Source of the DNA: Candidatus Undinarchaeota archaeon
Lineage (GTDB): Archaea; Undinarchaeota; CAZWFW01
Reading direction: 5' to 3'
Length of the DNA: 64,000 bases
NCBI GenBank assembly: GCA_964633445.1
Contig: CAZWFW010000001.1
Span: forward strand, 6,339-70,338
The position numbers were made by a program, and so were the translations under genes. The notes below the pieces were generated by a model. That model was not told the DNA's origin. It saw only the letters and a list, made by a program, of their open reading frames with translations, and made no database searches. This document shows positions 1-62,570 of the stretch, piece by piece; position 1 is the first letter of the stretch, and every line of letters begins with the position of its first letter.

Positions 1-1083
1 TATCCACGTCTTAAATGGTAGCGTTAACTCCGTATAATAATTCGCTACAAAAACTTCTGCTGCTTTTGCAAAGCCTAAACCAACTGTAATACCAAGCAGA
101 CCTCCAGCACATCCTATAAATCCAGATTCTAGCAAAAATATAAGAAATATGTGAATCTTCTTAGCACCTATAGCCTTCAATATACCTATCTCTCGTGTTC
201 TTTCAGTTACTGCCATATACATGGTGTTCATAATCCCTGTTGCTCCCACGATTAATGATATCCCAGCAATTCCAACAACAACTGCCGTTATTATTGATAG
301 AATGCTTCCTATCCTTTCAGACAATTCCTCTGTTGTTAAAATCGTAAAATCCTCTCTTTTCCTATCCTTCTTCAAAACCTTTTCTATTTCTTTAGCAACG
401 TCCTCGGGATCTCCCTTAGCTTTAACTAATATTAAATTTGCCTCATCAGCTTTTAAAACTTCCTTCGCAGCATCATAAGGAATATAAATTGAATAATCAT
501 CAAATCTGCTACCTATTTTATTTAAAATCCCGATGACTTTAAAAGGAACACCATTAATAACTATTTTATCACCAACCTCAATTTCTTTGCCAAATTCATA
601 TTTAGCAACTCCATAACCAAGAACAGCCTCATAGCTCTTGCTTTTTCTCAGATATTTTCCTTCTTCCAGGCTATAACCCTGTATGGTTTCCATAATTTCC
701 TTCATTTTATCTACAGGCAAACCGTAAACAAAGGTTACATCAGAGGTATCTTTATAAACAACGGTTGCTGTTTTGAATATCAAAGGAGCTGCTACTTCAA
801 CACCTTTAACTTTCTCTATGTCCTCTATTTCTTTTTCTGAAAATCCTTTTCCAAAAAGCGCGGTTCCAAGCATGCTTTTCTGAGACTTTCCTGGCAGTAC
901 TGTTATTTTATCCTTCCCAAGTTTTTCAAACTCTTCGCTTACGTACTTCTTCATACCAACGCTTATTGAAATCAAAGCCACAATTGCCGAAATTCCGATA
1001 ATTACACCAAGAATTGTTAACCAACTTCTTAATTTTTGTCTTGTAAGGTTTCTTAGTGCTAGGATTGCTATATCCAAAAGCAT
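1..1083 (-). CDS. ABC transporter permease, FtsX/MacB-type (gene 3' end lies outside window)
   Basis: Not in the ORF track because it runs off the window. My translation from ATG 1083 gives MLLDIAILALRNLTRQKLRSWLTILGVIIG..., then a roughly 200-aa extracytoplasmic domain, then ...MAVTERTREIGILKAIGAKK... (FtsX-domain hallmark). TAATG stop/start overlap with the upstream gene. Confidence 0.85.
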   Translation of the reverse strand, partial: MLLDIAILALRNLTRQKLRSWLTILGVIIGISAIVALISISVGMKKYVSEEFEKLGKDKITVLPGKSQKSMLGTALFGKGFSEKEIEDIEKVKGVEVAAPLIFKTATVVYKDTSDVTFVYGLPVDKMKEIMETIQGYSLEEGKYLRKSKSYEAVLGYGVAKYEFGKEIEVGDKIVINGVPFKVIGILNKIGSRFDDYSIYIPYDAAKEVLKADEANLILVKAKGDPEDVAKEIEKVLKKDRKREDFTILTTEELSERIGSILSIITAVVVGIAGISLIVGATGIMNTMYMAVTERTREIGILKAIGAKKIHIFLIFLLESGFIGCAGGLLGITVGLGFAKAAEVFVANYYTELTLPFKTWI

Positions 1084-33110: not shown

Positions 33111-33368
33111 AAAAATTTATCTTCATGTTGTTTGCAAGACCCAATGCGTAAGCGTGGGGATACGCAATGGGAGGCGGGTGGGAAATATTTAAATACTTTG
33201 AAGTTGTATAAACAGTAATCTCGCAACAGCCGTTAAGGCCGGACAGCCCGTGAGGATAACGGGTAGTGGCCTCGTGAACAGGCCTGTGAGGATAAGGGTG
33301 GTAGAAATCCACCAAACTCCTCACGAAGCTCCTTTCGTAAGGGAGGGGCAGTTTACAGCCCTGTTTTT
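33111..33368 (-). ncRNA. G+C-rich structured island 1 (candidate ncRNA or cis-regulatory leader; strand tentative)
   Basis: 36/60 G+C in 33241-33300 versus 17/60 in 33421-33480. Hairpins at 33140-33171, 33268-33284 and 33286-33324. Shares blocks with islands 2 and 3. Oligo-T is present on either strand (33364-33368 on plus; 33111-33115 on minus). The track ORF 33094-33372 is probably spurious. Confidence 0.5.
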
Positions 33369-34004
33369 CCAATATTTCTTGAGAAGCTCTCCAGAAGCAT
33401 ATGCACTAAGAAGTGCGAAAAGTGAAAAATTAACTCTTCTTTCAAAGCTGCCAATTAATTTCACTTCTACAAATTCCTTTCTTTCAAAAGCTTTGACAAG
33501 AATTCTACAAACCTTTCTATTGTTTAAATAACCCTCCAAATAAATAAACTCGTTTTTTAAAATTTTTATAGTGTAGGATGTTTTTTTGATTTTACCCATT
33601 AAAAATCTAAATTCGCTATTCTTTATCAAAAGTTTTGCGAATTGTTTTCTTAGTGAAAGCAATATCGGATTTCCACTCCCACCAAATTCCAAAATAACGT
33701 CCTTTAAAGACTTTTTAGTAGTAAGAATTATTTTACCCTCCAGATATACAGGTATCGAAAAAAGTAGATAATAGGAGGTAGAAACAGCATCCAGCCAGAT
33801 CTCGTAATAACAATGTTTACAGAATAGAAAAAGTGAAAATGAAGATAGAAAATATCCAGGGGAATGAGGAATACCATTTTTAATGAAAGGGAATATTAGA
33901 GCATAGATACATGAATGCAACAAAAATAGATATGTTGCTAAAAATAGTTTAAGCAAACCAAAAATTATAAACAGAGAATCGAGAAGATAAATCAAACTTA
34001 CCAA
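33321..34004 (-). CDS. Hypothetical membrane protein (C-terminal ~16 codons overlap island 1)
   Basis: 227-aa ORF with a hydrophobic N-terminal half and no recognisable motif. It overlaps the 63-aa ORF 33949-34140 in another frame, so this could be two genes or one frameshifted gene. Confidence 0.4.
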   Translation of the reverse strand: MVSLIYLLDSLFIIFGLLKLFLATYLFLLHSCIYALIFPFIKNGIPHSPGYFLSSFSLFLFCKHCYYEIWLDAVSTSYYLLFSIPVYLEGKIILTTKKSLKDVILEFGGSGNPILLSLRKQFAKLLIKNSEFRFLMGKIKKTSYTIKILKNEFIYLEGYLNNRKVCRILVKAFERKEFVEVKLIGSFERRVNFSLFALLSAYASGELLKKYWKNRAVNCPSLTKGAS

Positions 34005-44085: not shown

Positions 44086-45207
44086 TTATTTTTTAAATTT
44101 TCTAATCTCCTCTAATTTTTTGCTGAATTCCTTTAGAGAATTAGCAAATCCCTCAACACTTGCTGTAACTTCCTCAGCCCCAGCTGCGTTCTCTTCAGCT
44201 GCTGCAGCAATTTCTGTTATTGTTGTCGAAACTTGTTGTATATTTTTAGCTTGTTGTTGTTGGGATGCAGAAACTTGCTGCATTTGTGCAGCAATTCTCT
44301 GAATGGCTTCAGCAATAGTTCTAAATGCTAGTAAAGCATTAGCAGATGTTTTGACAGCCTTTGTAACACTACTTTTGGCTATTCCTGCAGATTCTACAGA
44401 TTTAGCGCTATAAGTTTGTATTTCTCCAAGTAAATCGGAAATTTTTGTTGCAGCAACTCTTGAATTTTCAGCCAACTTTCTAATCTCATCAGCAACTACT
44501 GCGAATCCTCTACCAGCTTCACCAGCTCTTGCAGCTTCTATAGCAGCATTTAATGCTAGTAAGTTAGTTTGTAATGATATATCTTTTATAGTTTCGACAA
44601 TTTTTCCAATTTCCTGACTTTTACCACCCAAATTTTTAATTATATCAGAAAGCTCCACAACAATTTTCTCGCTATTTTTAAGCTCCTCTATAGCTTTTTC
44701 AGCGCCTTCCTTACCCCTAGTAGCACTTTTACTTATATCAACTGCAAGTTTTTCTGCTTTCTGAATACTTGAGCTAATTTGTTGTGAAGCTGCTGAAAGC
44801 TCTATAATTGCTTTTCTAATGTCCTCAATTTGAATAGATTGATTTTGAGCATTTTTTGCCATTTGCTGAGTAACAGCATTAATTTCCTTGGAAACATCGA
44901 CAATATTTGAAAAAGACTTCATCATCTTTTCTATTTCGCTGGAAATACCTTCTTTTACTTTCACTTCAATAGAGTCTAAAACATCGTTTAAAGCTTGTGC
45001 AAAAACTTTGAAATTAGGATCGGGAATCTCATCTGGGTTTACTCTTGCCTTTATATTTCCCTCCTTGTATATTCTAAGCAAAACTTCACATATCTTACCA
45101 ATACTTTCACTAATTTCAGAGGCTACTCTTCCCACTTCCTCAGGTTTGTTAACATGTTCAAAAACTTTAGCTTTTAACTCGTTTATGTCCAAAAATTTCT
45201 CAGTCAT
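44086..45207 (-). CDS. Soluble methyl-accepting chemotaxis protein
   Basis: Highly conserved signalling hairpin [35 protein letters not shown] see no hydrophobic segment, so it is probably cytoplasmic. Confidence 0.92.
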
Positions 45208-45291
45208 TCTATTTTTTTGTTTCTTTTACATAATTTTTATCAAAGCTCAAAGGAATTACCATCTATAAGTAATTGTTATCATCTAAAAGTT

Positions 45292-45445
45292 AAAAATCTT
45301 ATTATCTTCATGTTACTTGCAAGATCCCAGTAGCCCACTCTTAACGAGAGTGGTATGCGGGGACTGTGAGCTGGAGGGTGTATGAGCTTAGAGCGTAAAG
45401 CTCTGGGTGAATGTCTAAACTTGCAAGCCATGAAAAGATTAAGGA
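45292..45445 (-). ncRNA. G+C-rich structured island 2 (candidate ncRNA or leader; strand tentative)
   Basis: Terminal inverted repeats at 45304-45324 and 45420-45439 around the palindrome cttgcaag. Hairpin 45335-45353. The 5' block is shared with island 1. On the minus strand it ends in T5 (45292-45296). The track ORF 45279-45473 is probably spurious. Confidence 0.45.
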
Positions 45446-45753
45446 TTGGATTGAAAGTGTGTACGGAAAACAATCAACTCCTCTTCTAATGAAGGATCTG
45501 AAGAAAAAATATGAAAAAATATATGAATAGGAAAGTTTTGGTGGGAAAGATACTTTTTCTAACCTTTAGGAATCTTTGGGAAATGTTAAGGCAAGTTTGA
45601 AAACAGATCAATTAGTTTTATGAATCTGCAAATCGAATGGATCTGGTGGTTTGGTTATGTGTGTTTATAATCAAAAATTATTGAAACGCAACGTATTCAA
45701 TTAGGAAAAATTACTTAATTATAAAAATAAAAATTAGAGAGCTAGAAGTAAAG

Positions 45754-46491
45754 TTATTGTCCGATACTCTTAAAAATTCTTAAAAACTCCATTGGAATCA
45801 CTATGGTGACATTCTTCTCCGCTGCAACCTCCGAAATTGTTTGTAAGTATCTTAAACTTGCAGCATCTACGCCAAGAATTTCAGCTGCTTGTTTTAATCT
45901 TTGCGCAGCTTGAACTTCAGCCTCAGCGGTTATTATTCTTGCCCTTCTATCTCTTTCAGCTTCTGCAGCTCTAGCCATTGCTCTATGCATCTCCTCAGGA
46001 ATCTGTACATCTTTTATCTCAACCGCTGAAACTTTTACACCCCAAGGATCTGTTGCCAAATCGATTTGCTCCTGCAATACCTGATTTATTTTCTCTCTTT
46101 CAGCAAGTACCTCATCAAGCTCTGCTTTACCAACAACCGCTCTTAACGTAGTTTGAGCAATCTGGCTTGTTGCATACATGTAATCTTCAACCTTACAAAC
46201 TGCTTTTTCTGCATCGAAGACTCTTGCGTATACTACTGCATTGACCTTTACTGGTACATTATCCTTCGTAATGATTTCCTGGGGAGGCACATCAATTACA
46301 AATGTCCTCAGACTTATGATGTTTATCTTATCTATTACTGGTATAACGAATATTAATCCTGGTCCCTTAACACCGTGCAACCTTCCTAGTCTAAAAACAA
46401 CTGCTCTTTCATACTCTTTTAGTATCCTAATGGCTCTGCTCACTATAAAAAGCAAGATTATTAATACTGCAATTAATGTTCCCCATCCCAT
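45754..46491 (-). CDS. Stomatin/SPFH-family membrane protein
   Basis: N-terminal TM plus the SPFH core [27 protein letters not shown] and a Glu/Ala-rich coiled coil. Zero-nt gap after the nfeD-like gene. Confidence 0.92.
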
Positions 46492-62317: not shown

Positions 62318-62493
62318 GTCTGTGAACTACCCACCGTTTTTAATGGGTGGCTTCCCCCAGATAAACACCACCACGGCTGGGGTCGGGCTGTTCACGAGCC
62401 CCGATGCCACCCATCAAAGGTATTTAAATATTTCCCACCTCCTCCCTAATTCACCCACCGATTGAAATCAGGGGTACTCTTAGCGACATTTTT
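62318..62493 (+). ncRNA. G+C-rich structured island 3 (candidate ncRNA or leader of hypC; strand tentative)
   Basis: Hairpin gggct-gttcacg-agccc (62385-62401). Long-range stem 62343-62351/62406-62414. A 33-nt block (62414-62446) is shared with island 1 in inverted orientation. T5 at 62489-62493. Confidence 0.45.
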
Positions 62494-62570
62494 ATGGAAA
62501 TATTTATACTCTGCAAGACATTATTTTAACCTCTCAAATTTAGAAATACAGGGAAGTCAATGAAAAATTT

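Follow-up and report, generated by a model that had tools for sequence, protein, structure and literature searches.

Here, we provide evidence from sequence comparison and folding that island 2, a G+C-rich intergenic element at positions 45292-45445 of a 64,000-nucleotide (nt) stretch of contig CAZWFW010000001.1 from a Candidatus Undinarchaeota archaeon (the whole stretch is hereafter called the window), may be a lineage-specific orphan gene for a structured small RNA (sRNA), which would be read from the plus strand behind a portable promoter/operator cassette and divergently from the MCP-cheW-cheY genes. We put the probability of this reading at roughly 0.4. The putative cassette is a 23-nt block that is conserved and portable, as it is found directly 5' and on the same strand of differing units: a core resembling the 3' hairpin of the HgcC RNA in island 1 and at two metagenomic loci (L023 and L028a), an unrelated two-hairpin core in island 2, and the ATG of a DUF2226 gene in Archaeoglobus sp. 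JdFR-27. Island 2 itself has fold potential, carries no coding signal and falls into no known RNA family. The strand, the start site, the promoter/operator function and any trans-acting role of the RNA are what we infer from these features.

The block is known from six loci, which share the form TTATCTTCATGTT[A/G][C/T]TTGCAAGA and align over about 23 near-invariant positions, TT(T/A)ATCTTCATGTT(R)(Y)TTGCAAGA, with unrelated flanks on either side. It includes a TATA-like TTATCTT, the palindromes CATG and CTTGCAAG, and an inverted symmetry, TCTT-N12-AAGA. Besides islands 1 and 2, the loci are L023/L037, two strain variants from metagenome Ga0190286; an exact copy (L028a) and a degenerate copy (L028b) on one Ga0190367 contig (L028); and L003 (identical with L031) in JdFR-27 (MTMO01000013.1, block at 1270-1297). 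The strings quoted in a preliminary description of the window were recovered where it had placed them, i.e., atcttcatgttacttgcaagatccca at 45304-45329, atcttcatgttgtttgcaagaccca at 33119-33143, and cttgcaagccatgaaaagat, the presumed inverted counterpart, at 45420-45439. Its view that islands 1 and 2 share the block beyond chance also holds: allowing up to three mismatches, ATCTTCATGTTRYTTGCAAGA has two matches in the window (33119 and 45304) against 0.05 expected, two were reached in 0 of 100 shuffles, and the block recurs in other archaeal contigs from hydrothermal vents. Chance can thus be set aside as the source of the similarity.

A scan of public genome contigs for the block gave one match, the single copy in the JdFR-27 metagenome-assembled genome (MAG), and the scan of metagenomes gave 45 matches, among which only L023, L028, L031, and L037 are real. 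The viral collection held no real match and one chance match in a coding region, and a search of 426 kb of sequence with an nhmmer profile of the block revealed no additional copy. Copy counts from the public scans are lower bounds, since a JGI contig in which the block is demonstrably present escaped the metagenome scan. Contig L028, which was obtained from the samples that also yielded the window organism, shares no gene with the window. In tetranucleotide usage the two correlate at 0.981, compared with 0.989 between the two halves of the window and 0.969 between the window and an 86%-identical sister contig. L028 probably represents the same or a very close genome, in which case the two copies originally described become at least four in about 86 kb.

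Positions, strand, and nature of the features of islands 1 and 2 are as follows.

45302-45324, plus strand: conserved 23-nt block TTATCTTCATGTTACTTGCAAGA, with two variable positions across the six loci and sharp conservation limits on both sides.
33116-33139, plus strand: second copy of the block in the window, in island 1, TTTATCTTCATGTTGTTTGCAAGA, identified by motif match and alignment.
45289-45297, plus strand: A/T-rich GTTAAAAAT just 5' of the block, a possible alternative TATA box with transcription factor B recognition element (BRE) on the plus strand; on the minus strand it reads as oligo-T (45290-45294).
45325-45364, plus strand: hairpin domain 1, UCCC...GGGGA around the perfect stem CCACUCU/AGAGUGG (45335-45353), -20.5 kcal/mol versus -17.6 kcal/mol on the minus strand.
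45365-45380, plus strand: purine-rich linker CUGUGAGCUGGAGGGU between the hairpins.
45381-45413, plus strand: hairpin domain 2, a stem of nine base pairs (bp), CUUAGAGC.../...GCUCUGGG, with the loop GUAAA (45386-45408).
45420-45447, plus strand: imperfect inverted copy of the block, CTTGCAAG-C-CATG-AA-AAGAT-TAAGGATT, of marginal significance (p=0.065 and p=0.062).
33140-33182, plus strand: island-1 core, a hairpin GCGUA...UACGC, or alternatively CCCAAUGC-GUAA-GCGUGGGG, with a G-tract; conserved in L023 and L028a.

Because the block is short, sharply bounded, and always located 5' of interchangeable units, we consider it a candidate transcription-initiation cassette. A rightward promoter is to be expected at this site, since the copies in the window and in JdFR-27 lie in divergent intergenic regions from which dcd, MCP, and TBP face away. 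In the archaeal core promoter, the centre of an A/T-rich octamer precedes a pyrimidine-purine start by about 26-27 nt. In island 1, L023, L028a, and island 2, TT(T/A)ATCTT, a weak TATA box, ends about 22 nt upstream of a pyrimidine-purine step at the predicted start. In the mechanism that we propose, this TATA-like element and a fixed spacer of about 22 nt would form a portable initiation cassette. The spacer, with its palindromes CATG and CTTGCAAG, might double as the operator of a sequence-specific regulator, a role suggested by the fact that core-promoter function does not explain a near-invariant spacer. The start would be a pyrimidine-purine step located 4-7 nt downstream of AAGA, near 45329/45330, and the 5' part of the RNA would consist of the two G+C-rich hairpins (45325-45364 and 45381-45413), which would remain folded at high temperature. 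A processing site or the first T-runs (45535-45558) would mark the end, which gives a length of about 90-230 nt. Further small RNAs and, in a second archaeon, a protein gene would be headed by the cassette too, and all these units might be co-regulated. Judged by sequence, only the promoter reading appears to find all its required elements in every copy. The palindrome at the centre of the block is over-represented in this genome in general, with five occurrences of CTTGCAAG in the window versus 0.7 expected and 61 of TTGCAA versus about 22 expected from base composition.

Island 2 sits in a 546-nt spacer between the minus-strand MCP gene (44086-45207), which is followed on that strand by cheW and then cheY, and the minus-strand Band7/NfeD pair. 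The MCP start at 45207 is 97 nt from the block, in agreement with the distance of about 100 nt given earlier. Non-coding stretches with at least 55% G+C over 60 nt number six in the window, namely three tRNAs and islands 1, 2, and 3. The G+C content of island 2, rightly described as high, reaches 0.58 in a stretch of 60 nt, compared with a mean of 0.353 for the window, and its GC skew is +0.23 to +0.50. The region 45285-45460 folds better than its shuffled counterparts (z -4.7 on the minus strand, -3.8 on the plus strand), as do the trimmed candidate RNAs (z -3.1 and -2.7). The hairpin ccactct/taacg/agagtgg was confirmed at 45335-45353, and on the plus strand its stem is lengthened by G-C, U·G, and A-U pairs. 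In hairpin domain 2, a GA/GA internal loop flanks the stem, three of the nine plus-strand pairs are G·U, and only five pairs form on the minus strand.

Rfam searches, run on the whole window at gathering thresholds and on three short slices as well as the complete contig L028 at E<=10, returned no family for islands 1, 2, and 3, and tRNA and transfer-messenger RNA scans of island 2 were negative. As regards guide sRNAs, no C/D-box or H/ACA family of Rfam matched at E<=10 save a truncated snoU85 fragment of 5.9 bits; by eye we found no RUGAUGA/CUGA pair and no ACA after a pocketed hairpin in the plus-strand core. As regards a riboswitch or 5' leader of MCP, the island lies 5' of this gene on its strand, the strand indicators point to the other strand, and the sole aptamer match, to the c-di-AMP family, reached 13.1 bits (gathering score 38) and is on the plus strand. 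A 64-amino acid (aa) open reading frame (ORF) across island 2 on the minus strand has no genuine homologue, its single match among 1.84 billion representatives being a tandem-repeat artefact. We also rejected a coding mini-ORF or C-terminal protein remnant (MLLAR...): read in frame, the block gives (F/I)IFML(L/F)AR and runs into a stop within 1-3 codons in four of five loci, and only in L028a does it lie in a long ORF, one that has no Pfam family. That ORF (L028 12847-13479, minus strand; also L061 3290-3916) encodes a predicted membrane protein of 208-210 aa which reads through block and hairpin, so that the element encodes its C-terminus, ...AFIFMLLARPTRKLRYARRGG. A palindrome-associated transposable element or omega-RNA of the IS200/605 type was discarded as well, as tnpB is missing and the two hairpins are dissimilar. 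Of the small structured RNA first proposed for island 2, the class is retained (G+C-rich, well-folding, and non-coding), while the minus strand, the block as its 3' tail, and the end-to-end pairing are not supported.

The plus, G-rich strand is the more likely RNA strand, as judged by G·U pairs, fold energies, GC skew, and the HgcC-like cores. All cores fold better on this strand (L028b with -9.8 versus -2.0 kcal/mol), and positions that would be C·A on the minus strand are U·G pairs in L023 and L028b. On contig L028, positions 370-490 (plus strand) match HgcC (RF00062) with 48.9 bits (E 9e-9), slightly less than the gathering score of 50. For the cores of island 1, L023, and L028a, similarity to the 3' hairpin and tail of this HgcC exists on the plus strand only, at scores reached by 0/500, 0/500, and 3/500 shuffles, respectively; the island-2 core shows no such similarity (p=0.76). 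The contig also carries other stable RNA genes, so that the HgcC match is part of a cluster with 5S rRNA and an intron-containing tRNA (1641-1728 and 1735-1855, both minus strand), L028b, and a copy of the island-3 type.

The opposite orientation would turn islands 1 and 2 into genes for minus-strand sRNAs with a conserved 3' tail, UCUUGCAAGUAACAUGAAGAUAA, that acts as target-pairing seed and is followed by an oligo-U terminator; the block before the DUF2226 start in JdFR-27 would then be a target site. We regard this as unlikely. Such a seed would be the most conserved part of the element, as is the block, and the complementarity of the block to positions -26 to -3 of the DUF2226 ORF in L003 is perfect. 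Island 1 has a textbook BRE/TATA, AAAGTATTTAAATA, correctly spaced for a 57-nt minus-strand RNA, and 30 nt of this promoter region are common to island 3, where a short RNA with TATA and U5 is kept in three copies. Runs of five to seven T follow the block on the minus strand in island 1, island 2, and L023/L037. However, the block is not followed by a T-run in L028a, L028b, or L003, which removes the oligo-U ending of the tail as a conserved feature, and L023 has no TATA. The G·U/C·A asymmetry favours the plus strand in island 2 as well as in L023 and L028b, the cores are homologous to the HgcC 3' hairpin on the other strand, and the single block copy found in the JdFR-27 MAG leaves no sRNA there to pair with the target. 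In JdFR-27, 2 nt separate the end of the block from the ATG of the DUF2226 ORF (108 aa), and in frame the block encodes a mini-ORF, MLLARE, whose UGA stop overlaps the DUF2226 AUG (AUGA). This arrangement could represent a leaderless promoter, an upstream ORF, or an sRNA target site.

Several observations weigh against a plus-strand sRNA gene behind a promoter/operator block. G-rich strands always fold better, which biases the comparison of energies, and one pair in L028a favours the minus strand. Five T follow the island-2 block directly on the minus strand, and the plus strand has no T-run until about 205 nt past the proposed start; in island 1, the consensus BRE/TATA (AAAGTATTTAAATA) faces a minus-strand RNA that ends in the block. 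As a TATA box, TTTATCTT is poorer than the boxes of neighbouring genes. A near-invariant spacer is unusual for archaeal promoters, and to account for it one has to assume in addition that a regulator binds there. In L003, the predicted start would lie 1-4 nt beyond the A of the ATG. The block is also missing from the promoters of 5S rRNA, tRNA, and HgcC in the same or a closely related genome. Neither an orthologue of the island-2 core nor a second copy in 426 kb was found; strain variants, compared via cheW and a neighbour gene of L028, are 99.8-100% identical, and other assemblies of island 2 are 99.98% identical. As the closest relative has other genes after Band7 and the other assemblies are near-identical, the comparisons gave no covariation for island 2.

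The inverted sequence at 45420-45447 bears on three further explanations. In the first, an RNA of about 155 nt would start at about 45292 on the plus strand, driven by TCTATAAG (45262-45269), and the block, as 5' arm, would pair with 45420-45447 around the two hairpins. The result could be a processing or protective stem, with a bulge-4 bp-bulge at CAUG that is loosely reminiscent of a bulge-helix-bulge (BHB) motif. The plus strand of 45285-45460 has a minimum free energy of -55.4 kcal/mol (z -3.8), with an interrupted outer stem of 23 bp including one G·U, and TATA-like octamers occur 36-40 nt 5' of the block in island 2, L028a, and L003. In addition, the 5' half of the island-1 block can pair over 11 bp, two of them G·U, with CGUGAGGAUAA at 33250, which none of 200 shuffles equalled. 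Yet the pairing of the arms in island 2 is not significant by energy (p=0.065) or alignment (p=0.062), L023, L028a, L028b, and L003 have no partner arm, the bulges differ from the canonical 3-4-3 BHB, and no terminator follows the right arm. A closed stem of this kind thus seems very unlikely to us.

The same sequence could instead act at the DNA level. Block, inverted copy, and palindromes would then be factor sites in a regulatory region without functional RNA that controls the divergent MCP-cheW-cheY genes and, at island 1, dcd. The block lies 30 nt upstream of the dcd start, compared with its 97 nt from MCP, both intergenic regions are divergent, the symmetry TCTT-N12-AAGA and the palindromes CATG and CTTGCAAG lie within the block, and the inverted copy keeps its length of 24 nt despite indels. 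What speaks for an RNA rather than an operator is the G+C enrichment and the stable hairpins in a thermophile of 35% G+C, and the cores beside the block are conserved and HgcC-like. Moreover, L023/L037 and L028a have no downstream minus-strand gene that could be controlled. We hold a purely DNA-level function to be hardly probable.

The third explanation, a remnant of a mobile element resembling a miniature inverted-repeat transposable element (MITE), with terminal inverted repeats around CTTGCAAG, had been raised in the preliminary description and is now highly improbable. Sulfolobus SM1-SM4 are archaeal MITEs, and like such elements island 2 is short, non-coding, partly multi-copy, and has inverted sequence at both ends; unlike them, it has no target-site duplications, no conserved interior, no two-ended copies, and no inverted repeat above chance. 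The inverted repeat at its ends is imperfect, with an alignment score of 22 that is at chance level in dinucleotide shuffles of the intergenic region (p=0.062; duplex energy p=0.065), and equal or better inverted matches exist elsewhere in the window, so that the claim of a terminal inverted repeat was not upheld. Like a mobile sequence, the block exists in multiple copies, which lie at unrelated loci of several genomes. Island 2, however, matches the other loci only over the 23-28 nt of the block, and the other copies are one-ended and share no element body with it. Flanking direct repeats are absent under either definition of the arms (..GTTAAAA/ATCTTATT.. and ..TAAGGAT/TGGATTG..), there is no transposase nearby, and the viral collection holds no real match. 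An integrated element with the block copies as attL and attR was a further candidate and was rejected, as the 12 kb between the direct block copies hold the housekeeping genes GAN/RecJ, L21e, and RpoF.

Two points of genome structure had seemed compatible with a mobile element. One is that island 2 is a synteny breakpoint relative to the closest relative, GCA_054010715.1, whose Band7 is 95% identical at a DNA identity of 86% (L004 3681-9684 versus the window from 45754 downwards). There, Band7 is directly followed by genes of 631 and 1413 aa and not by island 2 and MCP-cheW-cheY. Comparison of the orthologous region thus recovered the Band7 neighbour, and island 2 is absent together with the whole che cluster, which makes the locus a rearrangement and not an empty site. 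No homologue of the MCP above 48% identity was found in the protein database. The other point is that two Logan assemblies, SRR7051321 and SRR7051322, break inside hairpin 2 (contigs L001/L002 end and L053 starts there; window 45382-45407) with a 26-nt overlap. Other assemblies cross island 2 unbroken, i.e., an ENA contig and a JGI contig that are identical to the window, and the breaks are probably an assembly or coverage artefact at the G+C-rich hairpin. If the reading as an orphan sRNA gene is right, a suspected mobile element would be struck off.

Among known systems, the Hgc RNAs, G+C-rich small RNA genes of A+T-rich hyperthermophiles reportedly described by Klein, Misulovin & Eddy in 2002, resemble the proposed sRNA gene most in setting. 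Island 2, like HgcC (RF00062), is an intergenic G+C-rich island with stable hairpins in an A+T-rich thermophilic archaeon, falls into the size class of about 100-130 nt, and has the layout of 5' hairpin, linker, and 3' hairpin with a GUAA-type loop. Cores of the island-1 type match the 3' hairpin of the L028 HgcC (p<=0.006). In contrast, island 2 obtains no score against the HgcC model at E<=10 (45295-45450, a 156-nt slice, and 45150-45800), and the HgcC of L028 has no block upstream. As for the promoter, Methanococcus stable RNA genes are said to have a box A (TTTATATA) and a conserved initiator box B (Wich et al. in 1986, Thomm & Wich in 1988). The TATA-like octamer of the block, fixed about 22 nt upstream of a pyrimidine-purine start, is similar to this organization, as is a conserved element near the start common to several stable RNA genes. 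Differences are that the block also precedes a protein gene and that, compared with ordinary archaeal promoters, its whole 15-nt spacer is almost invariant.

In Pyrococcus abyssi, the sRk RNAs are small and arise from intergenic loci that are conserved or repetitive; some of them overlap promoters of neighbouring genes and several have an unknown function. The repeated ones are related to OrfB elements of the IS200/605-IS607 type (PMC3124441). The candidate sRNA of island 2 shares with them the origin from conserved or repetitive intergenic loci and the possible overlap with the promoter of a neighbouring gene. It differs in that no OrfB-type ORF or similarity was found at island 2 and in that it belongs to a different, uncultured lineage. 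Our literature search on the block motif and HgcC returned nothing relevant besides this study.

It is tempting to extend the proposal from island 2 to all block loci. In this extension, the block, as a dedicated operator/promoter cassette or as an RNA seed, would define a multi-copy sRNA family with interchangeable structured cores, and thus a hidden sRNA regulon in a deep-branching uncultured euryarchaeal lineage of hydrothermal vents, with one member back-to-back with the chemotaxis operon and the cassette recruited to the DUF2226 gene in the other archaeon. We consider such a family possible, if rather doubtful. If the reading of island 2 is true, at least three vent archaea have unrelated transcription units behind an almost invariant and compact 23-nt cassette, an unannotated small RNA without Rfam family is added to a barely sampled thermophilic archaeal lineage, and the cassette could serve to trace co-regulated sRNAs as well as its binding factor. 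This would not be new biology in kind, as G+C-rich sRNA genes of A+T-rich hyperthermophiles are a known class.

The source organism is indicated to be a (hyper)thermophilic archaeon by the archaeal genes in the window (GAN/RecJ with a DHH-CID domain, L21e, RpoF, and aIF2-gamma), by its G+C-rich tRNAs (67-69% G+C in a window of 35.3% G+C), and by the identities of aIF2-gamma. The latter is 91% identical to the protein of one sister MAG and at most 65% identical to any other protein, and the lineage is thus sparsely sampled. On the 3' side of island 2, an A-rich stretch (window 45489-45530; 45503-45522, plus strand) contains GAAAAAATAT twice in tandem and a 13-codon ORF (MKDLKKKYEKIYE), and the first plus-strand T-runs are at 45535-45538 and 45554-45558.

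The right part of island 1 (window 33186-33370, plus strand) has the appearance of an RNA of its own, which is G+C-rich, about 150 nt long, and without Rfam family. A palindromic BRE/TATA (GGGAAATATTTAAATAC) lies about 22 nt 5' of this RNA and CCCUGUUUUU comes after it, and two YGUGAGGAUAA loops (33250 and 33286) could pair, G·U pairs included, with the 5' half of the block (equalled in 0 of 200 shuffles). Island 3 (window 62318-62500), which is G+C-rich and located upstream of hypC, likewise has no Rfam family. It shares 20 identical nt in inverted orientation with island 1, within a similar stretch of about 30 nt (GGGAGGNGGTGGGAAATATTTAAATAC). A short unit of island 3 (AUUCACCCACCGAUUGAAAUCAGGGGUACUCUUAGCGACAUUUUU) has a conserved TATA and U5 on one strand and better G·U pairing on the other. 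Homologues of island 3 are present on the minus strand of contig L028 at 14330-14060 and 900-640, with 98% identity over 55 nt and 89% over 57 nt.

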